A stretch of DNA of 64,000 nt, taken from assembly GCA_028697145.1 (NCBI GenBank), contig JAQVFR010000003.1, positions 3,988 to 67,987 on the forward strand, written 5' to 3'. This stretch comes from Actinomycetota bacterium. Lineage in GTDB: Bacteria; Actinomycetota; Geothermincolia; Geothermincolales; RBG-13-55-18. Made by a program: the position numbers and the translations under genes. The number at the start of each line of letters is the position of its first letter. Within the stretch, counting starts at the first letter, position 1. The notes below the pieces were generated by a model. It did not search any database, was not told where the DNA came from, and saw only the letters and a list, made by a program, of their open reading frames with translations. This document shows positions 3,489 to 60,487 of this stretch, piece after piece.

Positions 3489-4619
3489 ATGGGCGAAGAA
3501 AACCTCGAGGAGCAGCGGCGGTCCCTTGACCGCTCCAGGCTGCGGCGCGGCTTCATACTGGCGGTGTCCCTCTCCGCCGCTACCCTCGTGATCATCTCCC
3601 TGGTCACCCTGGATCGTGAGACCTTCAGCGCCCTCTCCAACCTCTCGCCCGGCTTCCTCGTCCTGGCCGCGGGCCTCTCCCTGGGCAGGTGGCTGTGGTC
3701 GATTGTGCGCATGCGCCTGCTGATTAGATGTGCCGGCAGGGACGTCCCCGTGCGCAACATAGTGAAGACGGTCTACGCCGGGTACTTCACCGGCCTCGTC
3801 ACCCCCCTGCGCGCGGGCGGTGTCACCGGGGAGATGTTCTTCCTATACGAATATGGGCTGGGCGCGGGCGAGGCTGTGGCCGTGGTCTCCTTCGGCGCCT
3901 GCATCTCCACGGCTCTGCTCCTGCTGCTCTTCCCCTTCGCCATCTGGATAGCCCGGAGCTTTATAGACCTGTCCATTACCATCCAGGGAGTCCTCTTCTC
4001 CGCTCTGGCCATAGGGCTTCTCTACCTGGCCCTGGTACTGTGGGCCATCCTGAGGCCCCATGCCACGGTGGAGAAGACCCTGATCGGATACTCACCCGCC
4101 TTTCTGCGCAGGCGTTCCTGGTACCGCCGCTTCCTCGCGCGCCTCTCCGCCGAGATACAGGCGTTCGCGGGATCCCTGCGGCAGCTGGCGAAGATAGGCG
4201 TGAGGAAACTGGCTTTAGTGGTCGTCCTGACCATGCTCTACTGGTTCACGGGTTTTATGGCCATCCCCGCGGCCGTCGTCGGCCTTGGTTACGGCTCGTA
4301 TTTCTGGCAGGCCGTGGTGGCGCAGCTGGTGGTGCACATCCTCATGCCCTTCGTGCCCACTCCCGGGGGCAGCGGCATCGGCGAAGTCGGCTTCCTCTAC
4401 GTCTACAAGAGCATCCTTCCCGACGTAGGCGTGGCGGGCCTGCTCACCCTCATCTGGCGTTTCATCGATTTCTATCTCGGTCTCCTGGTGGGAGGAGCGG
4501 CCTTCATCCTCATCATGCGGGACATCGGCCGCTCGCCCCGGCGAGAATCCGACGAAGCGGCAGGCGGGGTGGAGGGAGAAGCCGTTGAGATGCAGGCTCC
4601 GCCGCGCGGAAAGACATGA
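3489..4619 (+). CDS. Polytopic membrane protein, lysylphosphatidylglycerol-synthase transmembrane-region/flippase-like family (UPF0104)
   Basis: 376 aa with about eight hydrophobic helices and a PxxPGGxGxxE motif near the C-terminal helices (PFVPTPGGSGIGEVGF), as in the LPG_synthase_TM family. Family assignment is from memory. Confidence 0.45.
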   Translation: MGEENLEEQRRSLDRSRLRRGFILAVSLSAATLVIISLVTLDRETFSALSNLSPGFLVLAAGLSLGRWLWSIVRMRLLIRCAGRDVPVRNIVKTVYAGYFTGLVTPLRAGGVTGEMFFLYEYGLGAGEAVAVVSFGACISTALLLLLFPFAIWIARSFIDLSITIQGVLFSALAIGLLYLALVLWAILRPHATVEKTLIGYSPAFLRRRSWYRRFLARLSAEIQAFAGSLRQLAKIGVRKLALVVVLTMLYWFTGFMAIPAAVVGLGYGSYFWQAVVAQLVVHILMPFVPTPGGSGIGEVGFLYVYKSILPDVGVAGLLTLIWRFIDFYLGLLVGGAAFILIMRDIGRSPRRESDEAAGGVEGEAVEMQAPPRGKT

Positions 4620-10454: not shown

Positions 10455-11096
10455 TCATTCCACCGCGCCCATGAAGCGCCGCGTGAAGGAGGGGAACTCC
10501 TCTGCGAACTTCTCCGCCCATTCCTCCTTCGTCCAGTACTTGTGGCGGTCGAAGAAGGGGTTGCGGACCTGGCAGCTCACTGCCACGCCGATGCAGAAAT
10601 CTACGTCCTCGATGAACTCGCATGCCGGGGCGGCCGCCCCGATGGTCTGAAAGACACGGCAGTGCAGCCCCATGTAATGGGCCACGGCCGCAGCCGCGTT
10701 GGCGGCCATGTGCACGTCGTAGACGACGAAATGGCAGCAGGGGCCGTTGATGATCGACTCCACGTCCTCCGCCTTGTTCAGCTCCTCGCAGGTAGCGAAG
10801 CCGCAGGCGCCGCAGTCGTAGTTATAGACGGACTTGCGCCTGGCCCCCAGGAGCAGGGCGCGCGTGTCCTGCTGCGCCAGGTCCACGAAGGCGCGGCCGT
10901 CGCGATTGAAGAGGGGCGAGACCTCGGCCACTCCCTCGCAGTAGCCAGACAGGTCGTCGAACTCCTCGGGCCCGATGGCCGATATCCTGATCTTGGGATG
11001 ACCGAACTTGAGCGCGGTGTTCGCCGCCACCGCCATGAGTTCCAGCGCCCGGTCGATGCCGCTCGCGAGGAGATCGTCACCGTTGATGATAGCCAT
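10455..11096 (-). CDS. Cys-rich ferredoxin-like protein (DUF2148-like, C-x2-C-G-x3-C), paralogue 1
   Basis: 213 aa containing YDCGACGFATCEE, GPCCHFVVYD and an additional AAAPAC Cys. The ATG at 11096 follows a GGGGGGG RBS. It is tightly stacked after its paralogue (stop TAG at about 11112). Confidence 0.55.
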   Translation of the reverse strand: MAIINGDDLLASGIDRALELMAVAANTALKFGHPKIRISAIGPEEFDDLSGYCEGVAEVSPLFNRDGRAFVDLAQQDTRALLLGARRKSVYNYDCGACGFATCEELNKAEDVESIINGPCCHFVVYDVHMAANAAAAVAHYMGLHCRVFQTIGAAAPACEFIEDVDFCIGVAVSCQVRNPFFDRHKYWTKEEWAEKFAEEFPSFTRRFMGAVE

Positions 11097-12330: not shown

Positions 12331-12355
12331 ATACCCAAGTATGATACCAAGGTAT
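12331..12355. promoter_or_regulatory. Operator-like double palindrome, site 1, between the divergent SCP2 operon and tetR
   Basis: Sequence ATACCCAAGTATGATACCAAGGTAT, made of two adjacent 12-mers of the ATACC-NN-GGTAT type. It is 22/25 identical to the site at 17427. A TTGACA hexamer lies at about 12314. Confidence 0.6.
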
Positions 12356-14598: not shown

Positions 14599-15597
14599 TC
14601 AGGGCATCTCCGTCCAGACCTTGCCGCCCTTGCGCCAGGTGATGGGCGGTAATTCCCTCTCCACCATGGTGTCCGCGTTCACGCGCGGGTAGCCCAGGAC
14701 GATGGCCGAAGCCACCTTGTAGGGCCACTTTATCCCCAGCTCCCTCTTGAGCCAGGGAAGGAAATTGATGCCGATGCTGAACGACAGCCAGCAGGTGACC
14801 AGCCCCAGGGAGTGGGCGGCCAGGACCATGTTGGTGCCGCAGATGCCAACGTCAATCCCCGGGTCGTTCATCCCCCGCTTGTCCATGAGGATCAGGATCA
14901 GGCACGGGGCCCCCAGGAAAACGTCTTTCGGCTTGAGGATGGCCGTGCCTCCCGATATGCCCCTCTGATCCATCAACCCGGGAGCCAACGCGCATAAGAG
15001 GCTGAGTATCCTCCTCGTCAGGGGATTGGTCTTGCCCGTCCAGTAGAAATTGGTGAGCAGCCTCCAGAAGGGGTCCATCTTCTCCGCGATATAGTCCATC
15101 TCCGCCCGGTCATTGATCACGATAAAGGCCCAGGGCTGGCAGTTGCCGTGGGAGGGGGCGAAGCGTCCGGCTTCGACCACGCGGCGCACAAGCACGTCCG
15201 GCACGGGGTCCTTGGAGTAGATGCGGTTGCTGCGGCGTTTGTAGATTACCTCCTCGACCGGCGTCAGCCCCTCGATACCCTCCACCTCCGGTATTTTCGG
15301 GTAACCGTCATCACCATGGTAGGACATGGTCCTGAAGATGCCTTCCTCCACGTTGTAGAAGCCCCGCATGCCGACTGCGCCCTTCTCACAGTGGGAGATA
15401 CAGGCGGAACAGGAAAAACATACCTTCCCATCGATCAGCCGCGCCTTCTTGTCCACGATCTCCAGGCAGCCCATGGCGCAGGCCTTGACGCAGTTCCCGC
15501 AGCCCGTACACTTCTCGGCGTCGATGATGATTTCCGAGAGCGACCACGCCTCCGGGTGAGCGGGCAAGTAAGCCTTCTTGAACTTTGCAGACGCCAT
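14599..15597 (-). CDS. Two-[4Fe-4S] ferredoxin domain fused to a nitroreductase-family domain
   Basis: CTGCGNCVKAC and CFSCSACISHC cluster motifs are followed by a nitroreductase-like fold (RRSNRIY..., HGNCQPW). The ATG at 15597 follows AAGGGGGA; an alternative ATG is at 15612. Confidence 0.75.
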   Translation of the reverse strand: MASAKFKKAYLPAHPEAWSLSEIIIDAEKCTGCGNCVKACAMGCLEIVDKKARLIDGKVCFSCSACISHCEKGAVGMRGFYNVEEGIFRTMSYHGDDGYPKIPEVEGIEGLTPVEEVIYKRRSNRIYSKDPVPDVLVRRVVEAGRFAPSHGNCQPWAFIVINDRAEMDYIAEKMDPFWRLLTNFYWTGKTNPLTRRILSLLCALAPGLMDQRGISGGTAILKPKDVFLGAPCLILILMDKRGMNDPGIDVGICGTNMVLAAHSLGLVTCWLSFSIGINFLPWLKRELGIKWPYKVASAIVLGYPRVNADTMVERELPPITWRKGGKVWTEMP

Positions 15598-15790
15598 CGT
15601 TTCCCCCTTCATCTCATACCTTTTACCATACGTACGCGTGCCAGGCCTGCACTCGCTGCACTCCGTTCAGGTGACTGGCACCGCCGCCTTCGGCGCTGTC
15701 GCTTCCGCGATGCATCCTGTCGAAACCTTTTTCATGCCTCGCGCCCCCCAGCCCGATAACTATGGGGTCGGTCGCCGCGAGTCCGCGAGC

Positions 15791-16077
15791 GGGACCGTTA
15801 CCCCAAGGTTCGGGCCAACCGAAGCCTTCCGTCTGCTGGACCGCCGCCAGCACGGCGGGCAAGGTGCTCGGAGGAGCTTGCGACGACGACCATCCTTGCC
15901 GCCGGGCTCCTGCGGAAGCGGGACCGTTGCCCCAAGGCTCGGGCCAACCGAAGCCTTCCGTCTGCTGGACCGCCGCCAGCACGGCGGGCAAGGTGCTCGG
16001 AGGAGCTTGCGACGACGACCATCCTTGCCGCCGGGCTCCTGCGGAAGCGGGACCGTTGCCCCAAGGCTCGGGCCAAA
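15791..16077. repeat. 129-bp tandem direct repeat, about 2.2 copies, intergenic
   Basis: The unit gggaccgtt(g/a)ccccaagg(c/t)tcgggccaaccgaagccttccgtctgctggaccgccgccagcacggcgggcaaggtgctcggaggagcttgcgacgacgaccatccttgccgccgggctcctgcggaagc starts at about 15791, 15920 and 16049. Copies are near-identical. All six frames give R/P/G-rich low-complexity translations. Confidence 0.85.
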
Positions 16078-16078
16078 A

Positions 16079-17338
16079 TCAACCCACGCGCTCCAATATA
16101 TGGATGCACATGGCCGCTTCGCCGGTGCCAATGAAGCCACCGCCGTTCTCTGACATGGCTATCCTCGCCCCCTCCACCTGGCGCTTGCCGGCCTCGCCCC
16201 GCAACTGCGTCACCAGCTCGACCAGTTGGGCGATACCAGAGGCCCCGATGGGATGTCCACGGCATTCCAGCCCTCCCGAGGTGTTGACGGGGAGCTTGCC
16301 CCCCAGCTTGGTGGCACCGGACTCCGCGAAGGGGCCGCCCTCTCCCTCTCCGCAGAAACCCAGTTCCTCGCACTGCAACAGCTCGCCGAAGGCGGTGGCG
16401 TCGTGCACCTCGGCCATGTCGATGTCCTCGGGGCCCACGCCGGCCACCTCGTATGCCTTCCTGCTCAGGCGTTCCCCGATGAGGTCCATGTCGCCTCCCT
16501 CGGGGATGGCGCCTCCGGTGAGCACCGATGCAAGGATCTTCACCGGACGCGCGCCGGTGAAACGCTTCAAGGCCTTCCCCGAGCAGAGTATCGCCGCCGT
16601 GGCCCCGTCCCCCATGGGCGCGCACATGGCGCGGGTGAGGGGGTAAGCCACCGGCCGGTCATTGAGGACCTCCTCGAGGGTCATATCCATCTGGTACTGG
16701 GCCAGGGGGTTCAGGGATGAATGGTAATGGTTCTTGGCGGCGATTATCGCCAGTTGCCGCTGCGTGGTGCCGTATTTCTCCATGTGCATCCGCGCCGCCG
16801 CGGCATAGAGGTCCATGAAGGGAGAGCGGGCGCCCTCGCCCCCTCCCTTCTTGCCCCCTCCCGTCGCCTCGGCCTCGGCCGCCTTCTTCTTCTCGTCCTC
16901 CATGAAAGCGGCAAGCACGACACGGATGAACTCCACGTCCGCGTTGGACATGAACATCTCGAACATGGCCTGCTTGTTGTCCGGGTTGAACATCTTCTCC
17001 ACCCCGATGGCCAGCGCCACGTCGTAAGCGCCCGCCCTGATGCCGAGGTAGGCGCCGTTCACGGCGCTGGTCGCCCCGGCGCAGGCGTTCTCTACGTTCA
17101 TGGTCGGGATGCCCTCGATGCCAAGCGGGACCAGCGCCACCTGGCCGCGTATGGAATGCTGGCCGGTGACTATCCCCCAGAAGGAATTGGAGAACCACGC
17201 CGCCTCAATATCCTTCTTCTGGACCGGGCAGTCCGCCAGCAGGTTGTCGATGACCTCCGCGGTCATCTGCTTGATGCTCTTCTCCGGGTACTTGCCGAAG
17301 CGGAACATCCCCACGCCGATGATATAGACGTCCTCCAT
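16079..17338 (-). CDS. SCP-x/nonspecific lipid-transfer-protein-type thiolase (thiolase-like superfamily)
   Basis: Begins MEDVYIIGVGMFRFGKY...; has NVENACAGATSA with an active-site Cys, and a C-terminal GGLECRGHPIGASG. The RBS AGGAGG sits 6 nt upstream of the ATG at 17338. Confidence 0.8.
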   Translation of the reverse strand: MEDVYIIGVGMFRFGKYPEKSIKQMTAEVIDNLLADCPVQKKDIEAAWFSNSFWGIVTGQHSIRGQVALVPLGIEGIPTMNVENACAGATSAVNGAYLGIRAGAYDVALAIGVEKMFNPDNKQAMFEMFMSNADVEFIRVVLAAFMEDEKKKAAEAEATGGGKKGGGEGARSPFMDLYAAAARMHMEKYGTTQRQLAIIAAKNHYHSSLNPLAQYQMDMTLEEVLNDRPVAYPLTRAMCAPMGDGATAAILCSGKALKRFTGARPVKILASVLTGGAIPEGGDMDLIGERLSRKAYEVAGVGPEDIDMAEVHDATAFGELLQCEELGFCGEGEGGPFAESGATKLGGKLPVNTSGGLECRGHPIGASGIAQLVELVTQLRGEAGKRQVEGARIAMSENGGGFIGTGEAAMCIHILERVG

Positions 17339-17426: not shown

Positions 17427-17451
17427 CATACCCTGGTATGATACCATGGTA
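17427..17451. promoter_or_regulatory. Operator-like double palindrome, site 2, about 90 bp upstream of the thiolase start
   Basis: Sequence ATACCCTGGTATGATACCATGGTAT; its second 12-mer is a perfect palindrome. TTTACA is immediately upstream. Confidence 0.6.
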
Positions 17452-17474
17452 TTTTAATCCCCCGGCAGCGTCAA

Positions 17475-30653: not shown

Positions 30654-30687
30654 AAAAAACGGCCTCTTTGTTTCGAAAAGAGGCCGG
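30654..30687 (-). terminator. Rho-independent terminator (minus strand)
   Basis: 9-bp stem cggcctctt/aagaggccg followed on the minus strand by TTTTTT. Confidence 0.6.
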
Positions 30688-30927
30688 TTTCACTATTAGC
30701 TCAGAACGTTATTAGTGACCATCTCATAAAACGTTCGTCATCGCTTCCTCTTAGACTGATCTAAACCTAGTGCTTTCATCTATCTAGTAAGTCCATCCTT
30801 AAGATAAAGCACGGACTCGTGCCCTTCTATGATTCAGATCAGGCAACTTTGATCATGAGAACGGCAGTTGGACAGCGGCAGTCTCGAGGCGTATCCGGGG
30901 CGGCGCGAACCTTCTGCTCCGTAATGC

Positions 30928-31170: not shown

Positions 31171-31560
31171 CCGAGGTAAAAAGACGATCGGGGCAGACCG
31201 GTCAGATCATAACTTCCGCGGCTCAAAGCCCCCACCCTCTCATCACCTCGCTTAATAGGCACCAAGTGTTTTTGTCCCTTTACGGTGCTGATTGATACCT
31301 GCTGTTGATTTTAGCAGAGAGCCCGGTGGGGAATGCCATTAAGGCCGTGGCCTGCATCTATCCGCGTTCTTCAAAAAGATGTTTCGCCTCGTCATGTATG
31401 GGGAAACACGATATAACGATATATATACGGTCCTGTATAGACAAAGGAAAAATATGTTATAATACGGTTGCTTGCACAATAGTTATATATCAAGGGATGC
31501 TGGGATCCGCGTTCTCGACATGGTCACCTGGGGACGCGGGGAGCTAAATGGTGAAACCGG

Positions 31561-31590
31561 CCCGATCGCAAGAGTGGTCGGGTTTTTTTA
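31561..31590 (+). terminator. Stem-loop plus T-tract, plus strand (terminator/attenuator of a possible leader or sRNA)
   Basis: cccgatcg-caagag-tggtcggg followed by TTTTTTTA. Upstream are TATAAT at about 31456 and a TTGCAC hexamer nearby. Confidence 0.4.
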
Positions 31591-31871: not shown

Positions 31872-34289
31872 TTGGAAGGCCTCAAAAAATGGATCGCGCT
31901 CCTCGCCACCGTAACTATGTTGCTGCTTGCTCTGATGTCTGGACTCATCTCGGCAGCGCCGTCGAAGGAATGGAAAGAAGACAAGGAGGAGCAATCGGAT
32001 ATAGTCGAGGATAAGACCGATGAAGAGGGTCTTGGAGGCGAGGACACGGTCGCTGGCCCAAGCGAGGAAAAGAACACCGTAGATGCAGGTGAGGCACCGG
32101 AAGCCCCCGACTCCGGCAAAGATGTGGCGGACACTGGGGCTGGAGGAAGCGAGGAATTGCCTCCCGCTGCACTCCTGGCCGCATGCGAACCCACGATGTC
32201 GACGATGGCGTCGGTGACACCGACACTGGTCGATCCCTGGGCATCGGGTGATGCGAAGCCCGAGTGCGTATTGGCTGCCACGATACTCGGGGTAAGCCCC
32301 GCCGATGAAGCCTATAAGGTTGATGCTGCCGCCCCCAACGGCACGTACACGAGTAACGGCAACACCATCACCATCTCCAACAGCACCGGCAAGGTGTTCG
32401 ACTGGGCGTCCGTGTACCCCGTGCAGTGCGTGATCGTGAAGGCGGGAACCGCCGCATACCTGTTCTACTACCCTGGTGGAGCTTACGGCGATACCGGCCT
32501 CTATGCACCGTACAACAAAGATATAAGTCACGTCACTTTCTGCTTCAACGTGCCTGTCCTGGGTTCCATCTGCGGCACCAAGTGGGAGGATCATAAGGAA
32601 GGCGCACCCGTCGACGGTGTGACCATCATCCTCCTCGACGCTACCGGCAATGAAGTAGCAAGGACCGTAACCGCGAATGGAGGCAAGTACTGCTTCAACG
32701 ATATCCCGCTGGGCGAATATACGGTGAGGGAACTCCTGGACCCCGGGTGGTATGCGAAGAGCCCTGCCAGTGGAGAGTGGACGGTCATCCTGAGCGAAAG
32801 CGGAAGCGGTATAGTAACCGCGGGAATCCTGTGCTGTCCGCCTCCCCCGCCTCCGCCGCCCTGCGTGACTGATGTGGACTTCATCAATGCCCGATACGGT
32901 TCCATCACCGGCCTCAAGTTCGAGGACATGAACGCGGACGCAGACAAGGATGCCGAGGATACGCCCTGGGCTGGGATCACCATCCAGCTCAAGCAGGGCG
33001 CTACGGTGGTCGCCACCACCGTGACCGATGCGAACGGCAGGTTCACCTTCTCGAGCGTCATGCCGGGGACCTACGACGTGGTCGAGGTCCTGGGAGCCGG
33101 TATCTACACCAGCACCTCGCTGATCATCTCCGGCGTGGAGGTTGCCTCCGGGCAAGCGGTGGTCCTGGACGAGACGCCCTTCCTCAACTACGAGGAGGGC
33201 TCCATCTCGGGCTACAAGTACCGTGACCTCGACGCCGACGGCGAGCTGGACCCCGGCGAGCCCGGATTCGCGGGCGTGACCATCAAGCTCTACGATGCGG
33301 ACGATGACCTGATCGACACCACGGTGACCGACGCAAACGGCAAGTTCGTCTTCATCGGCGTCGTGCCGGGGACCTACTCCATAGCAGAGGTGCTGGGCGC
33401 GGGGGTCCTCTCCAAGAGACTCACCACCATCACCGGCGTGGTGGTGGTATCGGGCGAGGAGACGGTGCTCGAGCAGAAGTACTTCCTCAACTACGAGGAG
33501 GGCTCCATCACCGGCCTCAAGTTCGAGGACATGAACGCGGACGGGGATAAGGACGCAGGGGATGCGCCCTGGGCCGGGATCACCATCCAGCTCAAGCAGG
33601 GCGCTACGGTTGTCGCCACCACCGTGACCGACGCGAACGGCAGGTTCCTCTTCACCGGCGTCGAGCCGGGGACCTACGACGTGGTCGAGGTCCTGGGTGC
33701 CGGTATCTACACCAGCACCTCGCTGATCATCTCCGGCGTGGAGGTTGCCTCCGGGCAGGCGGTGGTCCTGGACGAGACCCCCTTTCTCAACTACGAGGAG
33801 GGATCCATCTCGGGCTACAAGTACCGTGACCTCGACGCGGACGGCGAGCTCGACGAAGCAGATACACCGTGGGACGGGAACTCTACTCCCATCGCAGTCG
33901 AGCTGTGGTCGGGCGGTTCGAAGATCGAAGAAACCATAATAAACAACGAGCATGGTTTCTATCTCTTCGCCGATCTTGAACCCGGCGAGTACACGGTCAA
34001 AGAAGCCGAGCCCTTCCCGGAGGGCGTTGAAACGGCGATGGACGATACCTCGTTCACAGTCGTCATCGAGTCCGGCGAGCACCTCGTTGTCGCCCCGGAG
34101 CAGTACTTCCTCAACTACATCCTGGAAGTCGCTCCTGTAATCATCGAGCCTGAGGTTGCGCCCCAGGTCCCAGGCCAGTTGCCCATGACGGGCTGGAACC
34201 TGCTGCCATGGGTCCTTGCCGCCGGGTTGCTCGCGCTCCTCGGATTGATAACCCTGATGCTCGGAGTGATACAGCTCCGCAGGAACTGA
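31872..34289 (+). CDS. LPXTG-anchored cell-surface protein with Cna-B/SdrD-B-type repeats and a poly-proline linker
   Basis: RBS AGGGAGGTGA then TTG at 31872 (an alternative ATG is at 31848). Signal peptide; CCPPPPPPPPC linker; four repeats of NYEEGSI(T/S)G.K(F/Y).D..AD...D...W.GITI.L; C-terminal LPMTG plus TM helix plus RRN. Confidence 0.8.
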   Translation: MEGLKKWIALLATVTMLLLALMSGLISAAPSKEWKEDKEEQSDIVEDKTDEEGLGGEDTVAGPSEEKNTVDAGEAPEAPDSGKDVADTGAGGSEELPPAALLAACEPTMSTMASVTPTLVDPWASGDAKPECVLAATILGVSPADEAYKVDAAAPNGTYTSNGNTITISNSTGKVFDWASVYPVQCVIVKAGTAAYLFYYPGGAYGDTGLYAPYNKDISHVTFCFNVPVLGSICGTKWEDHKEGAPVDGVTIILLDATGNEVARTVTANGGKYCFNDIPLGEYTVRELLDPGWYAKSPASGEWTVILSESGSGIVTAGILCCPPPPPPPPCVTDVDFINARYGSITGLKFEDMNADADKDAEDTPWAGITIQLKQGATVVATTVTDANGRFTFSSVMPGTYDVVEVLGAGIYTSTSLIISGVEVASGQAVVLDETPFLNYEEGSISGYKYRDLDADGELDPGEPGFAGVTIKLYDADDDLIDTTVTDANGKFVFIGVVPGTYSIAEVLGAGVLSKRLTTITGVVVVSGEETVLEQKYFLNYEEGSITGLKFEDMNADGDKDAGDAPWAGITIQLKQGATVVATTVTDANGRFLFTGVEPGTYDVVEVLGAGIYTSTSLIISGVEVASGQAVVLDETPFLNYEEGSISGYKYRDLDADGELDEADTPWDGNSTPIAVELWSGGSKIEETIINNEHGFYLFADLEPGEYTVKEAEPFPEGVETAMDDTSFTVVIESGEHLVVAPEQYFLNYILEVAPVIIEPEVAPQVPGQLPMTGWNLLPWVLAAGLLALLGLITLMLGVIQLRRN

Positions 34290-34382: not shown

Positions 34383-35675
34383 TCAGCTTATCTCGCGGAT
34401 GCGCTCGTACAGCTCGTTGCGGTGAAACTGGTCGAAGTCGTAATAGCCGCGCACGACGTCGAGCCTTGAGAGTTGCGCTCCACCCTCCCATAGCTGAAGC
34501 GTCTTCGCGTCCCTCCAGTATTTCTCCACGTAGTAATCGGTCACGTAACCATACGAGCCCATGAGCTCCATGGCGCGGTTGGTGACGTTGATCGCCGCGT
34601 CGCAGCAAAAGACCTTGGCGGCCGATGCCCTGGAGAGCATGTGCACGGATGCGCCGTCACCATACACCTCGGGGCGGTCATATAAATAAGCGGCGTTGAC
34701 GTAATTGTCCCTTCCCGCCTGTATGCCCATGGCGATATCGGCAAGCATGGTGGCGCAGACGGTATGCTGCCGGATGGGCTTTCCCGCCGCTATCCTGTCG
34801 GTGGTAAAGGCAAGGACCTCGTCCAGGGTCCCCTGGGCCATACCGATGGCCAGCCCCGCGGAGACGATGCGCGCGAAGGCCTGGTTGTCCCACAGCAACT
34901 CCGCGTCCCAGCCCGGCCCGGCGGCCCGCCATCCCTCCGGCACGCGCACTCCCTTGAGCTCGAAACCGCCCTGTCTGCTGCCCCTGAGCCCTTCCTTGTC
35001 CTCGAACCCCAGGAACGTAAACCCTTGCGTCGGGACCTCCACGTAGACCAGGGCGATCCCTTCGTCGCCCAGGCTCTGATCCGTGCTCGCGACCACGCAA
35101 TATGCGCCCGCAAGGCCCGCGTTGACCGACCATACCTTGGTGCCGTCCATTACCCACTGCCCGTCGCGCAAGGCGGCGGCACAGGTTATCCCGCTACCCA
35201 TGAGGTCGGCGTTCTCGATATCGCTGCCCCCTTGTGGCTCGGTGGCTGCGAAGCACCCCAGGCATAGTTCATCCTCCTGTACGAAGCGGGGTGCAAAATG
35301 CTCCAGCACCTCACGGTTGTCAGTCTTTATCGCCGGTCGCATGGCCAGAATGCCGCCCATCAGGGAGGTAAAGAGGGCGGCATCTCCCCTTCCCATCTCC
35401 TCCGCCAGCAAGGCCGTGGTCAAGGCCGAGGACAGGCCCATGCCGCCATATTCCTCCGGCAGGAACCCTCCCTGCAGCCCCAGGGGCAACATCTTCTTCA
35501 GCGTTTCCTCCACCAGCCCGTAATCCGAGCGTGTGCTCTCGTCGAGCTCCCTACGCACCGGCATGATCTGCTCGTCCACGAAATCCCGCGTCGAGCTCAG
35601 AAGGAGCTTGTCCGAGGGACTTAGAAGTTCCTGGACGAACCTGTTCTCCTTGCGTTCAATGGATACCTGTGCCAT
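34383..35675 (-). CDS. Acyl-CoA dehydrogenase family protein (tandem paralogue A)
   Basis: ACAD-like throughout (CFAATEPQGGSD, YGYVTDYYVEKYWRDAK). About 45% identical by eye to 35749..37044. Confidence 0.75.
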   Translation of the reverse strand: MAQVSIERKENRFVQELLSPSDKLLLSSTRDFVDEQIMPVRRELDESTRSDYGLVEETLKKMLPLGLQGGFLPEEYGGMGLSSALTTALLAEEMGRGDAALFTSLMGGILAMRPAIKTDNREVLEHFAPRFVQEDELCLGCFAATEPQGGSDIENADLMGSGITCAAALRDGQWVMDGTKVWSVNAGLAGAYCVVASTDQSLGDEGIALVYVEVPTQGFTFLGFEDKEGLRGSRQGGFELKGVRVPEGWRAAGPGWDAELLWDNQAFARIVSAGLAIGMAQGTLDEVLAFTTDRIAAGKPIRQHTVCATMLADIAMGIQAGRDNYVNAAYLYDRPEVYGDGASVHMLSRASAAKVFCCDAAINVTNRAMELMGSYGYVTDYYVEKYWRDAKTLQLWEGGAQLSRLDVVRGYYDFDQFHRNELYERIREIS

Positions 35676-35748
35676 GTCCTCTATCCTCCTTGCCGGCTCA
35701 GCCGGCGGACGACCTTTTCTGCTTCACGCGCTCCGCCTCCCTCTGTCT

Positions 35749-37044
35749 TCATTTCCTTCGCATCTCCTGCATCTTTTCATAGAGATCATTCTCGTAGAAC
35801 TGGTTGTAGTCATAGTAGCCGCGGGTGACGTCCATCTTCCCCAGCTGTACTCCCCCCTCCCACAGCTGGACGATCTTGTTGTCGCGCCAGTACTTCTCTA
35901 CGTTATAGTCGGTGGCGTAACCGTAATTGCCCATGAGCTCCATGGCCTGGTTGGTAGCCTTCACCGCCATATCGCAACAATAGACCTTGGCGACCGTGGA
36001 CCTCGACAGCATGTACTTCGAATGCCTCGGCCCGTAGGTCTCCGGGTGGTCGTACATGTAGGCGGCGTTGACATATGAGTCCCGTCCCACCTGGATGCCT
36101 ATGGCGATGTCCGCGAGGATGTTCGCGGCCACGGTGTGCTGGCGTATGGGCTTTCCCGCAACCTTGCGGTCGCGCGTGAAGGCCAGTGCCTCGTCGAAGG
36201 CGCCCTGGGCGATGCCCGCCGCCCACGCCGCACTAAAGAGGCGGGCAAAGACCAGGTTGTCGTGCAGCAGCTCCGCGTCTTTTCCGGGTCCCGCGGCGCG
36301 GTACTCCAGGGGTACGCGCACGTCCTCGAAATAGAAGTCACCCTCGTGGCTGCCGCGGAAACCGGCCTTGTCCTCGAACCTGCCAAAGCTGTATCCCTCT
36401 ATAGGGACAGGCACGTAGATGAGGGCGATACCGTCGTCGCCCAGGGACGGGTCTGTGTTGCACACCACGCAATATACATCGGACTCCCCCGAGTTCGTCG
36501 GCCATACCTTGGCGCCGTTGATCACCCATTCGTCACCGTCCAGCACGGCGCGGGTGTGTATGCCCTTTCCCTTCATGTCAAGGTTCTCTATGTTGCAGCC
36601 GCCCGAGGGCTCGGTCATGGCGAAGCAGGCGACGTAAGGCTCACTTCCCAGGAAGCGAGGCGCAAAATCTTCCAGCAGGGTCTTGTTCTCTGCGAACACC
36701 GCCGGGCGGAAAGCCCAGGTGCCGCCTCCGATGGGCGCAATACAGGCGGGCTCGCTCCTGCCGAACTCGTCGAGGATGACGCAGTAGGTTAGCGCCGAGG
36801 TGAGGTTCCAGCCCCCGTATTCCGGCGGAAGGAACGCGCTCTGAAAGCCAAGGTCGACAAGCTTTCTCTGCACCTCCTTCACCAGTTTCCAATCGCCGCG
36901 TGTGCTGGCCTCCATCTCCTTTCGTATGGGCATGATCTCGCGTTCGACGAAGTCCCGGATCAGGTTCACCAGGAACCTGTCCCCGGGGCTTACCAGCTCG
37001 TGCATGAACCTGTTCTCCCTGTTCTCGATGGAAACCTCTTCCAT
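35749..37044 (-). CDS. Acyl-CoA dehydrogenase family protein (tandem paralogue B)
   Basis: Begins MEEVSIENRENRF...; has CFAMTEPSGGCN and YGYATDYNVEKYWRDNK. The RBS AAGGGGGAAGGGAG precedes the ATG at 37044. The ORF-track upstream extension is not used. Confidence 0.75.
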   Translation of the reverse strand: MEEVSIENRENRFMHELVSPGDRFLVNLIRDFVEREIMPIRKEMEASTRGDWKLVKEVQRKLVDLGFQSAFLPPEYGGWNLTSALTYCVILDEFGRSEPACIAPIGGGTWAFRPAVFAENKTLLEDFAPRFLGSEPYVACFAMTEPSGGCNIENLDMKGKGIHTRAVLDGDEWVINGAKVWPTNSGESDVYCVVCNTDPSLGDDGIALIYVPVPIEGYSFGRFEDKAGFRGSHEGDFYFEDVRVPLEYRAAGPGKDAELLHDNLVFARLFSAAWAAGIAQGAFDEALAFTRDRKVAGKPIRQHTVAANILADIAIGIQVGRDSYVNAAYMYDHPETYGPRHSKYMLSRSTVAKVYCCDMAVKATNQAMELMGNYGYATDYNVEKYWRDNKIVQLWEGGVQLGKMDVTRGYYDYNQFYENDLYEKMQEMRRK

Positions 37045-51831: not shown

Positions 51832-53475
51832 CTATCGCGGCGGGCCGGAATCGGTCCATTTCAGCCTCTCCCGCAGCTCGTCGAACCTCTTCCTCTTCGC
51901 GGGATCGATGCGCTCATAGGCGAAATCCGCCTCCTCGGTATAGAAGCCGGTGTCGGCGGCGGCGTGCGGGTCGAAGGCGGAGGATATCCTTCTCTGCCAG
52001 CGGTTGTAGTTTCCCGCCAGCGGGCTCAGGGCCTTTCGTACCGGCGCGATGAAAGCCGACAGGGGGGTCATGCACAACTCGATGGCATTGAGGGTGGCGG
52101 AGAACTCGATGGGATTGAGGGCGTCCAGGGCTCCCTTGTTGTCCACCGAATAGGCGTATAGGACCTCGCAGTGGGCCCAGGTGTTGTTCTCGTAGGGGAC
52201 GAAATAAGGGTTGTTGCCCCCGTCCTCCATGATGCACTCCCTCTCCATGAACTCCTGCTTGGCCTCTGCGATGGCATCCACCCACTTCATCTGGGTATCC
52301 AGGGCCTCGTTGCCGTCCAGGCAGGTCCCGAAGATGCCGCCGGGCCGGAAGGCCAGGGGGATGATGCTCACGCGCAGCAGGTTGAGTCCCATGAAAGAGG
52401 CCATGGGCCCCATCTTGTTCAGGTCCAGCATGAAGCCGTCGTATTCCAGGACGATGCGCTTGAGCACCTGCTCCTGGAAGGCTATCTCCCCCGCCGAGCT
52501 TCCGGCCAGGACGAGGGTCAGGGGGTAGGCGAGGGTGTCCGCGAGTATGGGCCTGATGGCCTTGGTGTCCAGGAGAGAGAAGCCGGTGTGGGGCATGACC
52601 AGTGCGGTATAAGCCACCGGGGCTATCCTGACGCAGCCGTATCCGATCTCGGATTCCCCGATCTTGTAGAGCGCGTCCGCGAACTCCCGGGGTCCGGGAA
52701 AGAACATCATGTAGAAACGCATGTGCTCCGGCACCTCCACGCGGGAGTCCAGCACCAGGCCCTCGCTCTTCAGCCGGGCCGGTCCCGGCCAGTTGTAGAG
52801 CTTGAGGGCGCACTTGGTGAAGACCCCCAGGCCCGAGAGCGCCCCCAGGGCCCCCCGCATGATGCCCCGCAGGGAGGGTCCGGGGCCGTCGCCACAGTAC
52901 CATCCCAGGCCGGACCCGGGGGTGCCCAACCTCAGCACCTCTCCGTCGGGCAGGACCCACTCCACGCCCACGACATTGCGCGCACTGTAGGCCATGTAGA
53001 TGCAGTCGTGCCCCACCCCGCTCATGGAGGTGGCGCTGGCCAGGGGCGAGCAGGAGGGACCGGCACCGATGATGTGGGTGTTGAGCCCCAGTTTCATGGT
53101 CTCGGCCTGGAGTTGGGCGCCGCTGACGTAGGGCTCGACCACGGCGATCATGTTGCGCTCGTCGATGTCCAGGATGCGGTCCATGCGGCGCATATCCAGC
53201 TGCACCACGTCCTCGGTGGTGGGCCCGGACGCCGCGCCCCAGCCGGTTGAGAGCGCCTTGAACTTGAGGCCGTGACGGTTGCATGTGCGCACGACCTCCT
53301 GCACCTCCTCGGTGCTGGACGGCAGGACAGCCGCTACGGGCCGGGTGATCCACAGCGCGGGGTCGTCGTTGAGGAAAGGCTGCCAGGTGTAACCCTCCAG
53401 CACCGCGGGCTCGCGCGATACGTTATCCGGACCTACCGCGGCCTCGAGTTCCCTATATGCCTCATCCGAGATCAT
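51832..53475 (-). CDS. FAD-linked oxidase, VAO/PCMH-type FAD-binding family (tandem paralogue 1)
   Basis: Begins MISDEAYRELEAAVGPDNVS..; has a PCMH-type FAD-binding domain (VVRTCNRHGLKFKALSTGWG..) and a C-terminal substrate domain. The RBS GGAGGTGG precedes the ATG at 53475. Confidence 0.7.
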   Translation of the reverse strand: MISDEAYRELEAAVGPDNVSREPAVLEGYTWQPFLNDDPALWITRPVAAVLPSSTEEVQEVVRTCNRHGLKFKALSTGWGAASGPTTEDVVQLDMRRMDRILDIDERNMIAVVEPYVSGAQLQAETMKLGLNTHIIGAGPSCSPLASATSMSGVGHDCIYMAYSARNVVGVEWVLPDGEVLRLGTPGSGLGWYCGDGPGPSLRGIMRGALGALSGLGVFTKCALKLYNWPGPARLKSEGLVLDSRVEVPEHMRFYMMFFPGPREFADALYKIGESEIGYGCVRIAPVAYTALVMPHTGFSLLDTKAIRPILADTLAYPLTLVLAGSSAGEIAFQEQVLKRIVLEYDGFMLDLNKMGPMASFMGLNLLRVSIIPLAFRPGGIFGTCLDGNEALDTQMKWVDAIAEAKQEFMERECIMEDGGNNPYFVPYENNTWAHCEVLYAYSVDNKGALDALNPIEFSATLNAIELCMTPLSAFIAPVRKALSPLAGNYNRWQRRISSAFDPHAAADTGFYTEEADFAYERIDPAKRKRFDELRERLKWTDSGPPR

Positions 53476-53818
53476 GCAGCCACCTCCATGTCCTGGCACG
53501 GACCGTTTACGCAGTCGTTGTCGCTTGTGTCCGACACGCTGTCATCTTCCCTGGACAAATCATAAGGCAAAGTACGTTTGAAATAAAGTGGCGCGTTCTC
53601 CTGGTCTAGCAGGGGTAAAAGCCCAGCAGGGCCCTCGCGGAACATTACCGACCGCCGCGTCAGCTATCGCTGTCGCAGGCGAAGTCCACCTGCGGCGTCA
53701 TGGTGCGCCCGCTGCCCTTGATGACGATCATGTCGATCTTGTGGAAGGAAAGCAGGTCGGGCAGCCAAGCGGTGCCTTCCCCTGCTGAACCAGGCCGGCT
53801 GCCCGCGGCAGCGGTACC

Positions 53819-55462
53819 TTATACCGGGTCTTCTTCGGACCCCTTGTGTTTCCTCACCAGCTCCTCAAGCTGCTTCACCTTTGACGGTTCGATGCGCGAT
53901 ATGTCGAACTCCGCCTCACCGCAGTAGAGGGTGGAGTCGGCGGCCCTGCCCGGGTCCAGCCGCTCGGATACCTTTTTCTGCCAGGTATTGAACCAGCCGG
54001 CCAGGGGGCCTATTATCCCGCGCACCCTGGGATCGGACGAGAACATAGGCTCCATGCACTGCTCCAGGGCAGCGATGGTGAAGTCCATGAAGATGGGCTC
54101 CAGGGTGGCCCGGTGCTCGTCTTTGCGCGGATCGAACTGGTAGACCACCTCGCAGTGGGCCCACATGTTGTCCTCGTACGGGACGTAATACGGATTGTCG
54201 GCCAGGTCGTCGATTATCCCCTGCCTGGCGATCCATCCCTTCTTGATCTCCATGCACTCTTCCCTCCAGTTCTCCTGGGTTTCGATAGCGTCGTTGCGGC
54301 AGAGGGCGGTGTTGAAGGAGCCGCCGATGCGGAAGACCAGCGCCGGCAGGGTGGCGCGCACGAATCCCATGAGGGCCATGGACACGAAGGGCCGGATAAC
54401 GCTCATGTCCAGCGCCAAGCCTCCGTGGTCCGCGACGATGGCCTGGAGGGCGGCGCTCTGGAAACCGACCTCCCCTTCCGAATCGCCCGCGAGGACGAAG
54501 AGCATCACGTATTCGAGGGTTTGCCCCAACACTTTCCGCAGAGAGGTGGCTTTGGTCAGCTTGCCGAAGAGGTGGGGTGCAATGACGTTCAGGTAGGCGG
54601 CGGTGGCCGTGCGCATGGCGTTGTATCCTATCTCCGACTCCCCTATCCTGAGCATCGCTTCCAGGAATCTCGCGCGGTCGGGAAGAGCGCACATGAAGAA
54701 ACCCATGTTCTCCGGTATCTCCGATTCGGCGTCCAGGAGCGTCCCCCGCGTCTTCACCACCGGCGGTCCCGTCCACTTGTAGAGCTTGAGGCAGCATGCG
54801 GTGAAGATGCCGATGCCGCCCAGGGCGCCGGCGGAGCCGCGCATGATGCCGCGCAGGGAGGGGCCCGGGCCGTCGCCGCAGAACCAATCCAGGCCGGAAC
54901 CGGGGCTTCCCACCCTGAGCACCTCGCCGTCGGGCAGCACCCACTCCGCGCCCATGACGTTGCGGGGGCTGTAGCTCATGTACACGCTGTCGTGCCCGAC
55001 TCCCCACCCCGAGGTGGCGCTGGCCAATGGGGAGCAGTTGGGGCCGGAGCCGTGGATGTGCAGGTTAAGTCCCAGTTTCATCGTCTCTGCCTGGATCTGG
55101 GCCGCGATGGCATACGGCTCCACCACCGCGTACATGTTCTTCTCGTCGATCTCCAGGATGCGGTTCATCCTACGCAGGTCTACCTGCACCACGTTGTCGT
55201 AGGTAGGCCCGCACCATACCCCCCAGCCGGTGGAGAAGGCCTTGAACTTGAGGCCGTGGCGGTTGCAGGCGCGCACCACCTCCTGCACCTCCTCGGTGCA
55301 GGAGGGCAGGACCACGGCAACCGGTCGCTTGACCCAGCGCTCCACCGGATGGTCGTTGTTGGTTGGCTGCCAGGCGTAGCCATCCAGAACGCCGGGCTCC
55401 CGGGATACGTTATCGGGACCGACCGCTTCCTCGAGTTGCGAATACGCCTCGTCCGAGATCAT
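53819..55462 (-). CDS. FAD-linked oxidase, VAO/PCMH-type family (tandem paralogue 2)
   Basis: Begins MISDEAYSQLEEAVGPDNVS..; collinear with paralogue 1 at about 60% identity by eye. The RBS GGAATGGAGG precedes the ATG at 55462. Confidence 0.7.
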   Translation of the reverse strand: MISDEAYSQLEEAVGPDNVSREPGVLDGYAWQPTNNDHPVERWVKRPVAVVLPSCTEEVQEVVRACNRHGLKFKAFSTGWGVWCGPTYDNVVQVDLRRMNRILEIDEKNMYAVVEPYAIAAQIQAETMKLGLNLHIHGSGPNCSPLASATSGWGVGHDSVYMSYSPRNVMGAEWVLPDGEVLRVGSPGSGLDWFCGDGPGPSLRGIMRGSAGALGGIGIFTACCLKLYKWTGPPVVKTRGTLLDAESEIPENMGFFMCALPDRARFLEAMLRIGESEIGYNAMRTATAAYLNVIAPHLFGKLTKATSLRKVLGQTLEYVMLFVLAGDSEGEVGFQSAALQAIVADHGGLALDMSVIRPFVSMALMGFVRATLPALVFRIGGSFNTALCRNDAIETQENWREECMEIKKGWIARQGIIDDLADNPYYVPYEDNMWAHCEVVYQFDPRKDEHRATLEPIFMDFTIAALEQCMEPMFSSDPRVRGIIGPLAGWFNTWQKKVSERLDPGRAADSTLYCGEAEFDISRIEPSKVKQLEELVRKHKGSEEDPV

Positions 55463-55654
55463 GCTGCAGCCTCCATTCCCCACACCAGCACGAGTATGAC
55501 GCTTCGTCATTTTTTGTTCGAGTAAATAATACAATCAGGCTTGCGCTAAATCAAAACCGGATGTGTCGGCTTACGGCGCATAACCTGCGTTGGCTCAGGG
55601 TTCTCGCGAGATCCTGATCCGGGTGCCCGGCCTGATAACCGGGTCAATCCCGCG

Positions 55655-58285: not shown

Positions 58286-60487
58286 TCAACTCCCGGTATA
58301 GCCTTCGGCGAAATACCATTCCTCGGAGGGGGAGATGGTGCCCTGCGAGCAGCTGCCCCCGTCACGGTTCCTGTAGACGAAATACATGGCGCGCTCGGCT
58401 ACCAATGGCTTATCCGACTCGACCAGGGTGGAGAACTCCGCTTCCTCCAGGCCCTGTAGATCGTCCACGTGCACGGTGTAGCGGGCATGGGGTTCGATCA
58501 CCGCCCTCTTCGTGACCTCCTCCCCGTCATCACGCATGAAGGTCAGGGTGACCGCGGCCTGGTCCGGTCCCGGGTTCTGCAGCAGTATATAGGTATCGAA
58601 GTACGCCGCGGTGTATCCCTCCGCGAAATACCAGCGCCGCGAGGTCTGGGATACGCCCAGGGCATCGTGGCCTCCCCCCCTGCCCTCGTAGATAAAATAC
58701 ATGGCCCTTTCCGCGACTATGGGTGTATCCGACTGCACGCGCAGCGAGAACTCCGTCTGTTCCAGGCCCGGCAGGTCGTCCACGTGCACGGTGCCGCGGC
58801 TGCGTCCCGGCACCACGATGTCGATTTTCCGGGTGGTGGCGTCGGGGAGCATGAATTCGAGCGTCACCTCCGCCTCTTTTTCGTCGGGGTTGGCCAGCAG
58901 GACCCAGGTATCGAAATCGCCGGCGGTGTATCCCTCGGCGAAGTACCATGTCAATCCGGTAGCCGACGCCCCCTCCGCCACCGTCCCTCCCCTCGCGCCC
59001 TTGTACCCGAAATAGACGGCCCGCTCCGCCACCACCGGGAGGTCGCTCTCCATCTTCACGCAGAACTCGCCGCAGTCGAGCCCGGGCTCCAGGTTCATCC
59101 AGATGGTCGTGCGGGAATGGGGAGCCAGGGTGTAGTAAAGCTCGTCGACTTCGCCCGCGTTGCCCATGAAGGAGACCGTGAGACGGGCCTCCCGGTCGTC
59201 GGGGTTCTGCACCAGGTAGAAGGTATCGAAATCGCCGCCGGTGTATCCCTCCGCGAAATGCCATTCCGTCCGGGGCTGGTTCGATCCCATACAGGCGTGC
59301 CCGCCCTTGCGGCCGCTTCCGAGGAAATCGAAGTACATGGCGCGTTCCGCGACGACCGGCCGATCCGACCGGACCTTGACGGAGACGTCCGAGTTCTGGA
59401 TGCGGTCGTTCACGCAGATGGTGTGGCGGGACCGCGGGCCCACCTCGCATTCCTCCTGCATCGTCCCTCCCCCGGGGAACATGTAGGTCACCGTGCACAG
59501 CACGGTCTCCTCGCCCGGGTTCTGTATGAGCAGGTACTCGTCGAAGTTCTGTGAGTTCAGGAAGAAGAAATGCGTCTGCAGGCCCACCACGGAGGCGAAG
59601 AGGGTCCCCTTCACCGTCCTGCTGCCGTCGCTGCCGTCCACGCGGATCCGGTTGACGCGGCCCGAGGTCCAGCGCGAGACCACCTCGAAGCCGTAGAGGG
59701 TCCCCACGGCTGTGTCAGCATGGGAGTTAAGCTTGGCCTGCAGCTCTTCCCAGGACATGGTCACCTTCCAGTCGTGGTCCTCGTCGCTGGCGCAGGCGTC
59801 GTCGTAAACGGGGCTCAGGTAAGGCAGGTTACTACCCCCCCACGCCTCTTCCATGCTAGCCGTATAGCCGCCGCAGCAGGAGCTGTAGGCGGCGACGATA
59901 GGCTCTCCGCCGTAGGTAATGATCTCCCCCGCGGTGGCGTTCACCGCTGCCACCGTGTTCGGCCTGGTCTTCGGGTCGATGGTCTCTACGAAGGCCTGGC
60001 AGCAGCTCCCGTACGGACAGATATCGTAACCGTCTTTGGTGTGCTTGTCGCGGTCTTTACAGGAGAGGACATAGGTCCTGGCCGCCACCATGGTCACCCT
60101 GAGGCCCTGCGTCGGCCAGCTGTCTGGCTCCTCCTGCAAGCGGTACAGATACTCCCGCAGCGTATATTTCCTTATCACGTTATCTCGGCAGAGGACCCTG
60201 ATGGGCATGTCGTCGCTCACGCGCGAGAAATCAACGCCGGTATAGTAGGCGCGGATGATGTCGTGGTATTCCTCTCCGCGCATGGCCCGGTAGTATACTC
60301 CCGCCATGCACAGCCCCACGCCGTGGCCCCGGCCGTGGCCGATGAAGGTCACGCTGCCCCCGCCGGCCGACGCCCCCTCGTCGCTGGGGAACGGAGCGCC
60401 CAGGAGGGCCGTAACGAGCACCGCCACGACCATGAAAGCCGCCAGCGCCTTCCGGCCTCTTCCTTCCCGTCTTGTCTCTTCGGGCAT
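58286..60487 (-). CDS. Secreted or membrane-anchored SpoIID/LytB-domain protein with four C-terminal WYFAEGYT-type repeats of about 110 aa
   Basis: RBS AGAGGAGGG then ATG at 60487. Signal or anchor helix, then a SpoIID/LytB-like region (..GHGRGHGVGLCMAG.., YSSCCGGYT). Four repeats follow, each containing W(Y/H)FAEGYT, FDT(Y/F/W).L..NP and P(V/I/L)VAERAMYF. Confidence 0.65.
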   Translation of the reverse strand: MPEETRREGRGRKALAAFMVVAVLVTALLGAPFPSDEGASAGGGSVTFIGHGRGHGVGLCMAGVYYRAMRGEEYHDIIRAYYTGVDFSRVSDDMPIRVLCRDNVIRKYTLREYLYRLQEEPDSWPTQGLRVTMVAARTYVLSCKDRDKHTKDGYDICPYGSCCQAFVETIDPKTRPNTVAAVNATAGEIITYGGEPIVAAYSSCCGGYTASMEEAWGGSNLPYLSPVYDDACASDEDHDWKVTMSWEELQAKLNSHADTAVGTLYGFEVVSRWTSGRVNRIRVDGSDGSRTVKGTLFASVVGLQTHFFFLNSQNFDEYLLIQNPGEETVLCTVTYMFPGGGTMQEECEVGPRSRHTICVNDRIQNSDVSVKVRSDRPVVAERAMYFDFLGSGRKGGHACMGSNQPRTEWHFAEGYTGGDFDTFYLVQNPDDREARLTVSFMGNAGEVDELYYTLAPHSRTTIWMNLEPGLDCGEFCVKMESDLPVVAERAVYFGYKGARGGTVAEGASATGLTWYFAEGYTAGDFDTWVLLANPDEKEAEVTLEFMLPDATTRKIDIVVPGRSRGTVHVDDLPGLEQTEFSLRVQSDTPIVAERAMYFIYEGRGGGHDALGVSQTSRRWYFAEGYTAAYFDTYILLQNPGPDQAAVTLTFMRDDGEEVTKRAVIEPHARYTVHVDDLQGLEEAEFSTLVESDKPLVAERAMYFVYRNRDGGSCSQGTISPSEEWYFAEGYTGS

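Follow-up and report, generated by a model that had tools for sequence, protein, structure and literature searches.

The 129-bp repeat in the gap between the thiolase and the nitroreductase gene is probably a copy-number-variable duplication inside a non-coding, dispersed composite of the MITE/BOX/BIME-like kind, located between the thiolase stop codon and a separate motif named F. In the window (the whole 64-kb stretch of DNA that was analyzed) TRF reported the array at positions 15788-16076 with a period of 129, 2.2 copies, 98% matches and a score of 564. This was the single long-period tandem array that TRF reported there. The repeat search revealed two full copies at 15788-15916 and 15917-16045 and a partial third copy of 31 nt at 16046-16076. 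In the alignment the full copies were identical at 127 of 129 positions (two differences) and the partial copy corresponded exactly to copy 2. Such an identity between copies cannot have originated by chance. The near-perfect head-to-tail repeat described in the first-pass annotation was therefore confirmed, and the copy starts proposed there (15791, 15920 and 16049) are all at most 3 nt off. The exactly repeated stretch comprises 138 nt and the overall pattern is A-B-A-B-A, where B denotes H-C. Repeat and profile searches detected no further copy of the 129-bp unit within the 64-kb window.

Modules of the thiolase-nitroreductase gap

Both flanking genes are encoded on the minus strand. The thiolase gene (16079-17338) encodes an SCP2-type protein of 419 aa with the Pfam domains Thiolase_N and Thiolase_C_1, and this exact protein is recorded in 14 public contigs. 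Its TGA stop codon lies at 16081-16079 and the repeat block begins 2 nt beyond. The second gene (14599-15609 including the RBS AAGGGGGAAACG at 15598-15609) encodes a Fer4 and nitroreductase protein (Pfam) of 332 aa, and the exact product is again recorded publicly. Public gene calls place the nitroreductase start at the ATG at 15597, which gives a coding sequence of 14599-15597; an alternative ATG extends it to 15612. The intergenic distance of 466 bp between co-oriented genes given earlier holds for the ATG at 15612, and the distance is 481 nt with the ATG at 15597.

Read in gene orientation (minus strand, as for all modules given below), the order is thiolase TGA, TT, A1 (31 nt), H-C (98 nt), A1, H-C, A2, dX (14 nt), D (30 nt), a spacer of about 20 nt, F (about 97 nt), RBS and nitroreductase ATG. 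The first copy of module A1 (TTGGCCCGAGCCTTGGGGCAACGGTCCCGCT, 16046-16076) is a left-arm, TIR-like sequence that was delimited by alignment, by an A-family HMM and by the A/D consensus pairing. The second copy at 15917-15947 is identical to the first in the alignment. Module A2 (15788-15818) aligns as A with the changes G10A and C19T, the latter of which preserves a G-U pair in a small GGGGY/GUCCC stem. The A-family HMM gave no match in the window outside the thiolase-nitroreductase gap.

Hairpin H has a length of 58 nt. Its first copy (15979-16036) was assigned by nhmmer (E=8e-17), by membership in a family of 57 instances, by stem covariation and by its local fold. Its second copy, identical to the first, was found by profile match at 15850-15907, and the profile search detected H in the window only in this gap. 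From 14 consensus stem pairs 12 are formed in the window copy (-26.3 kcal/mol), with one bulge. The loop of 29 nt contains a GCUC/GAGC mini-stem. Segment C (TGGCGGCGGTCCAGCAGACGGAAGGCTTCGG, first copy at 15948-15978) corresponds to the 'AAGTGGCAGCGCAGACG' module located 3' of H in type-i members of the family; module coordinates place its second copy at 15819-15849. The dyads named in the first-pass annotation are all present: ggcggcaagg...ccttgcccgcc is the H stem, gctc-ctcc-gagc is the inner mini-stem of H, and gctgg...ccagc lies in segment C. The B to A1 junction at 15947/15948, which reads GGAAGGCTTCGG/TTGGCCCGAGCC across C and A1, is diagnostic for the tandem arrangement.

The repeat block ends with dX (14 nt, CGCGGACTCGCGGC) and module D (GACCGACCCCATAGTTATCGGGCTGGGGGG) at 15744-15787, D being the right-arm inverted repeat of A. 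A2-dX-D forms a local hairpin of its own (-41.9 kcal/mol). Judged by module X as it occurs in the related contigs L016 and L114, this segment looks like an internally deleted A-X-D element. Motif F follows at 15627-15723. It comprises three hairpins and a terminal box GGCCTGGCACGCGTACGT at 15630-15647, and was identified by nhmmer (E=6.5e-19), by position statistics and by a consensus fold with compensatory changes. A profile search found F in the 64-kb window only in this gap.

Several other features were observed in the window and in related contigs. The palindrome ATACCnnnGGTAT occurs as two tandem pairs with a spacing of 13 nt at 12331-12355 and 17428-17452. One pair is located in the divergent region upstream of a TetR-family gene and the other between acyl-CoA dehydrogenase genes and the thiolase gene. 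In total, 13 matches to the palindrome were counted in the window versus 4.2 expected by chance. These pairs are likely operators, still putative, of the local TetR regulator. Two c-di-GMP-II-type riboswitch aptamers are located on opposite strands about 730 nt apart, at 30673-30757 (minus strand) and 31486-31569 (plus strand), with scores of 61.3 bits for RF01786 and 47.9 bits for RF03169. Two Moco (molybdenum/tungsten cofactor) riboswitch aptamers were found on the same strand and 1 kb apart in L114 (6478-6596 and 7479-7627). Diverged repeats with periods of about 300-315 nt and duplicated segments of 1.4-2 kb, with 60-90% identity, are present in the window at 32825-33879, 34390-36339, 52708-55476 and 58373-59264; these resemble repeated protein domains or paralogous genes. 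Tandem repeats of about two copies were also observed in apparent coding sequence of L018 (3570-3817, period 134, 99%) and L120 (3413-3731, period 155, 96%), which may be real in-frame duplications or assembly loops.

Coding potential and copy number of the unit

The length of the unit (129 = 3 x 43 nt) and its open state in six of six frames would fit a protein-coding sequence, either a C-terminal extension of the thiolase formed by TGA read-through, whose frame remains open for 152 codons beyond the TGA, or a small ORF of the MIRU type through which translation of the two flanking genes is coupled. The end position of the thiolase, however, is constant in 17 relatives (HILE[RK]xx followed by TGA, TAA or TAG). 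The copies of the family differ by indels of 1, 2, 5 and 10 nt, which are not multiples of 3, and the variation of H is compensatory in the stem rather than synonymous. Pfam gave only sub-threshold noise across the gap. The gap ORFs stop at 15623, 15760 and 15798 and none reaches the nitroreductase ATG at 15597; as they do not overlap this ATG, there is no coupling at -4. A coding relic was considered as well. Six-frame translations of the unit compared to all loci by tblastn resulted only in a DNA-level match to L021 and low-complexity noise. The constant thiolase end, the indels and the Pfam result bear out the earlier statement that the unit is non-coding, and a coding function is extremely improbable.

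Public contigs encoding exactly these thiolase and nitroreductase proteins share 99.96-100% identity with the window. Two NCBI MAGs exhibit a gap of 352 nt, corresponding to A1-H-C-A2 with a single unit. The JGI contig L013 exhibits a gap of 481 nt and the same 2.2-copy structure as the window. None of the Logan contigs (k=31) crosses the gap. The k=31 assembly graph was simulated for each copy-number state, with positions counted in nt after the thiolase stop codon. For two or more units, the simulation predicted contigs ending at 32 or 140 and restarting at 239. Ends at 32 (L006-L008) and 140 (L003) and restarts at 239 (L014 and L015) were indeed seen. No break is predicted for a single unit, and a single unit together with another H copy in the sample predicts an end at 87, which was seen in L004, L005 and L009. 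The match of the contig breaks to the simulation for at least two units indicates the presence of the tandem junction in no fewer than six independent data sets, namely five Logan runs and the JGI assembly. The one-unit state is indicated by three Logan runs and the two MAGs. Copy numbers obtained from short reads are to be read as lower bounds, the one-unit state of the two MAGs could be an assembly collapse, and graph cleaning of the Logan contigs could hide a rare junction. The gap lengths and contig breaks agree with the previous suggestion of a copy-number-variable locus, with alleles of one and of at least two units in near-identical strains. Thus, the locus is a real VNTR within a population that is otherwise almost clonal.

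The second copy might also have been created by assembly, by a de Bruijn-graph loop traversed twice or by strain variants stitched in tandem, the true genome carrying one unit. The two MAGs of the same population do contain only one unit, short-read assemblers are unable to count the copies of a 138-nt exact repeat, and several near-perfect tandem repeats of about two copies are found at contig ends of related metagenome contigs. A graph loop, however, requires reads over the C to A1 junction, which exists only with two or more units. The breaks at 32 and 140 (ends) and 239 (restart) fit two or more units in six independent data sets and are unexpected for a single-unit genome. In addition, the same 2.2-copy sequence was obtained in the independent JGI assembly (L013), and the Logan contigs break at branch points that only the tandem junction creates. 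An artefact is therefore very improbable, and a real duplication remains the preferred reading.

The H family, the composite element and motif F

A scan of JGI metagenome contigs for the 24-nt H core TCGTCGCARGCTCCTCCGAGCACC yielded 52 stretches with 57 instances, 47 of which are distinct. They occur on both strands, and some contigs carry two copies several kb apart. No match to the H core was found in viral contigs. Some H-bearing contigs encode proteins that are 59-84% identical to those of the window and partly syntenic, and consequently derive from relatives of the window organism. Two of the contigs, L099 and L027, were suspected to be the same contig on account of their equal length; comparison showed that they are different. 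For dispersal of H within the genome of the window organism itself, the contig breaks at 87 nt are no more than a hint. Naive ORF calls are misleading at this GC content; the gene context was determined with a codon-position GC gene caller validated on the window. According to this caller, 55 of the 57 instances are intergenic. Relative to H, the upstream gene is co-oriented in 32 cases and opposed in 20, and intergenic contexts of all types are represented. This dispersed family of uncultured Geothermincolia-like Actinomycetota bears out the REP/MITE-like element that had been listed as a possibility.

The stem of H was analyzed using 19 distinct sequences, in which 95.9% of the cells were paired. 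Five pairs were changed on both sides, a value matched by 1 of 500 shuffles, and the covariation score of 0.111 (versus 0.063) was matched by none of 500. The stem is thus kept through compensatory changes. Compared to the consensus, the window copy itself shows an A-U to G-C swap. The 29-nt loop is nearly invariant across the family, and H is 93% identical between the window and L021, whose flanking genes are about 80% identical. The near-invariance of the loop and the conservation of H above that of the flanking genes could reflect functional constraint instead of selfish spread.

Two subfamilies of H are told apart by their flanking modules and the window copies belong to type i. The type-ii subfamily is commoner (for example L130 1090-1200, L108, L124 and L137). 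In type ii the 3' arm of H and the next module form TTGCTC-N17-TATAGT, which comes close to the consensus geometry of a sigma-70 promoter and is directed towards the downstream gene. Type-ii H is preceded by the 5' half of F in 18 of 25 copies. In 5 cases the 3' box of F is located within 260 nt downstream, as if H were inserted into the variable hairpin P3 of F.

An alternative reading of the unit is a functional cis-acting RNA in the thiolase-nitroreductase transcript, e.g., an attenuator, a stabilizer or processing site, or a protein-binding RNA, whose duplication would alter nitroreductase expression in a selected way. The compensatory stem, the near-invariant loop and the conservation of H between window and L021 are in line with such a function, and type-i composites usually begin a few nt past the stop codon of a co-oriented gene. 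Co-transcription of thiolase and nitroreductase is plausible, since a sequence scan detected neither a sigma-70-like promoter nor an intrinsic terminator on the gene strand of the gap. Moreover, for BIME and BOX elements an influence on the expression of genes transcribed together with them has been reported (PMC3049150). Rfam covariance models, however, gave no match to the unit, neither at gathering thresholds nor at E<=10. Nothing relevant was found on canonical family members in 13 related loci, nor on canonical composites at E<=1. Neither the unit nor the gap folds more stably than shuffled sequence (z of -0.18, -1.07 and 0.02 for sense strand, antisense strand and whole gap, respectively). 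Because these z-scores are ordinary, the argument from dyad symmetry to a structured RNA fails on energy alone. H lies on either strand with respect to its neighbours and in all intergenic contexts, and both alleles coexist in near-identical strains, as neutral variation predicts. Consequently, the earlier idea of a recently duplicated regulatory RNA or attenuator found no support in the Rfam search, the fold energies, the search for terminator-like sites or the orientation of H, and we regard a selected cis-acting RNA as unlikely.

The repeat is better described as part of a dispersed composite element. In type-i members the order is T-rich spacer, A, linker, H, C and D, and A often begins a few nt past a stop codon. 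RNAalifold predicted three nested helices from nine non-redundant composites. In the outer helix, A (GCCCGRG) pairs with D (CYCGGGC), and one position shows 5 G-C and 3 A-U pairs. The middle helix is formed by CGGTC with GACCG, and the H stem is located at the tip. Thus, the composite is about 170 nt long and has inverted repeats at its ends. In L114 (around 10545-10580) and in L099 (minus strand, upstream of H) the upstream ORF seems to enter A and to end at the TAA of the conserved GGTAACGG. This suggests, on the basis of distances from a crude gene caller, that insertion of the composite can replace the native stop codon of a gene.

Thiolase orthologues with 82-91% identity are found in MAGs labelled Actinomycetota, 'Ca. 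Solincola', 'Ca. Geothermincola' or Geothermincolia. In L021, a stretch of 55 nt with 93% identity to the B core is located 35 nt past the stop codon of the orthologous thiolase; this related MAG thus carries H at the orthologous site. L016 contains a single A-like module there. Among the closest relatives, L016 and L021 have different versions of the composite, and L017 and L018 have none. This differing content shows that the site is dynamic. No obvious target-site duplication was recognized at the window junctions (TGATT/TTGGCCC ... GAGGCATG/AAAAAGG) or at the flanks of 10 family copies. L118 and L122 were considered for a filled/empty comparison and rejected, as synteny leaves the window end or breaks. 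A tblastn search of 1.15 Mb of fetched loci for a Y1 transposase gave spurious matches only; it used two RAYT/IS200-family queries and is a weak test. With neither a target-site duplication recognized nor a transposase (RAYT or IS) found in the fetched loci, mobility of the element is a property that we infer.

Motif F begins 5-13 nt past the thiolase stop codon in 7 relatives, versus 356 nt in the window. Judged by these positions, F is the ancestral occupant of the gap and the A...D block an insertion between the thiolase stop codon and F. F was found in L022, L028, L050, L021, L024, L018 and L016, and 38 further matches were obtained in L096-L147. It usually begins 5-30 nt past the stop codon of a co-oriented gene and recurs in successive spacers of one operon. 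In this motif of about 100 nt, hairpin P1 is capped by a GNRA loop and accompanied by hairpin P2 and by a GUGCC/GGCAC helix enclosing the variable hairpin P3; the 3' box GGCCUGGCACGYRUACRU forms the end. The P3 loop is UUUCCGAA and compensatory changes were observed at 4 pairs. Rfam contained no match to F. A reading of the box as a sigma-54 promoter (CTGGCACG-N4-ACGT) was rejected on inspection of the sequence, as the -12 GC element is missing at the required spacing. F is therefore best regarded as a candidate structured RNA or protein-binding element. A more speculative and rather improbable proposal is that H and F are lineage-specific elements read by a dedicated protein or RNase, as processing or termination signals or as small catalytic or protein-binding RNAs, and that the number of A-H-C units tunes the Fer4-nitroreductase as a phase-variation-like contingency switch.

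Origin of the duplication and relation to known repeats

The most likely origin of the duplication is slippage at, or unequal crossover between, the A repeats of 31 nt. The single-unit allele A1-H-C-A2 already offers two such direct repeats 129 nt apart. Slipped-strand mispairing or unequal crossover between them would convert it to A1-H-C-A1-H-C-A2. The exchange would have to fall within the first 9 nt of A to yield the exact structure observed, and the reverse of the same process could delete a unit. This model is supported by the recurrence of tandem duplication in related contigs, namely a 169-nt unit in L114 and arrays of F in L050 (x2.9) and L129 (x1.9). The L114 repeat (4262-4600, also in L134) contains two copies of a unit composed of the last ~40 nt of a gene and a complete A-X-D. 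Its second copy has a 10-nt deletion, and it represents a second independent tandem duplication involving this repeat family. The F arrays are near-perfect and lie at 2201-2477 in L050 (period 97) and at 6276-6477 in L129 (period 104); a further one occurs at 7612-7760 in L119 (period 80, x1.9). Since tandem duplication also affects other modules of this repeat system in related contigs, the first-pass description of such duplications as uncommon does not hold for this clade.

The design of the element is closest to that of BOX, and it also resembles BIME, NIME and Correia-type mosaics. BOX of Streptococcus pneumoniae (boxA - n x boxB - boxC) is likewise a modular composite of about 200-600 bp or less with complementary pairing end modules and an internal module that folds alone and varies in tandem number. 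It too is intergenic, often co-transcribed and different in length between strains. For this length variation, a change of the boxB number by slipped-strand mispairing or unequal crossover has been proposed (PMC3049150). The window element shares the complementary ends, the variable tandem interior and the alleles of one and at least two units, a resemblance of design only. In contrast to BOX, it belongs to Actinomycetota and has 68% GC, its repeated unit includes the left arm A besides H-C, and no TSD or IS partner was recognized. Phylum and base composition differ, and sequence homology with the pneumococcal boxA, boxB or boxC is unlikely.

Like BIME/REP of enterobacteria and pseudomonads, the element is an extragenic mosaic of short motif families that forms hairpins and often lies just past stop codons within operons; BIME/REP may act as attenuators or mRNA stabilizers. 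A REP, however, is an imperfect palindrome of 20-40 nt with a GTAG/CTAC head, whereas H comprises 58 nt with a conserved 29-nt loop and no GTAG head. H is therefore not a REP. GTAG motifs were found in the composite family only in modules D and E of some relatives. Correia, NIME and other MITEs share with the composite an interior flanked on both sides by inverted repeats of ~25-30 nt, an overall size of ~170 nt, a strong predicted pairing and many dispersed copies, which for the composite are spread over metagenome contigs of relatives. Terminal inverted repeats are present, as A (GCCCGRG...CGGTC) pairs with D (GACCG...CYCGGGC) in the 9 non-redundant composites including G-C to A-U swaps. Unlike these MITEs, the element is not AT-rich (67.6% GC in the gap vs 62.2% in the window), and no TSD was recognized and no cognate transposase found in the fetched loci. 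Mycobacterial MIRU-VNTRs are likewise actinobacterial tandem units of ~50-130 bp between co-oriented operon genes with strain-variable copy number. A MIRU is inserted at a start codon, and the ORF that it contains is coupled to the downstream gene at -4 nt (PMC12548453). The window unit, in contrast, is a hairpin-rich composite without an ORF linking the flanking genes, and because the gap holds no coupled ORF the element is not a MIRU. It belongs to the general kind of small interspersed mosaic repeats, outside any named family.

Most likely, the element is selfish or neutral in its behaviour, a sequence of the MITE/BOX/BIME-like kind whose presence just past stop codons is tolerated. Any effect of the duplication would consist of one extra stable hairpin (H, -26 kcal/mol) in the intercistronic thiolase-nitroreductase transcript. 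The element probably has no function or affects the mRNA only mildly.

No paper on repeats in Geothermincolia was found, the searchable literature on this class being sparse. The finding opens no new category of biology and its value is mainly practical. It accounts for the breaks and collapses of short-read assemblies of this population at the thiolase-nitroreductase gap, and provides a VNTR marker for tracking strains of an uncultured Geothermincolia-like actinobacterium across samples. It also documents modular intergenic repeats (A, H, C, D, X, E and F) that had not been described before, from an actinobacterial class that branches deeply and has received little study. For research on MITE/REP/BOX-type elements, this set is a new example from a GC-rich lineage. 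The remaining novelty is the strong conservation of the H loop and motif F itself with its good covariation, its strict rule of starting just past a stop codon and no counterpart in Rfam. The conserved H loop and the structured motif F are thus candidate functional RNA or DNA sites.
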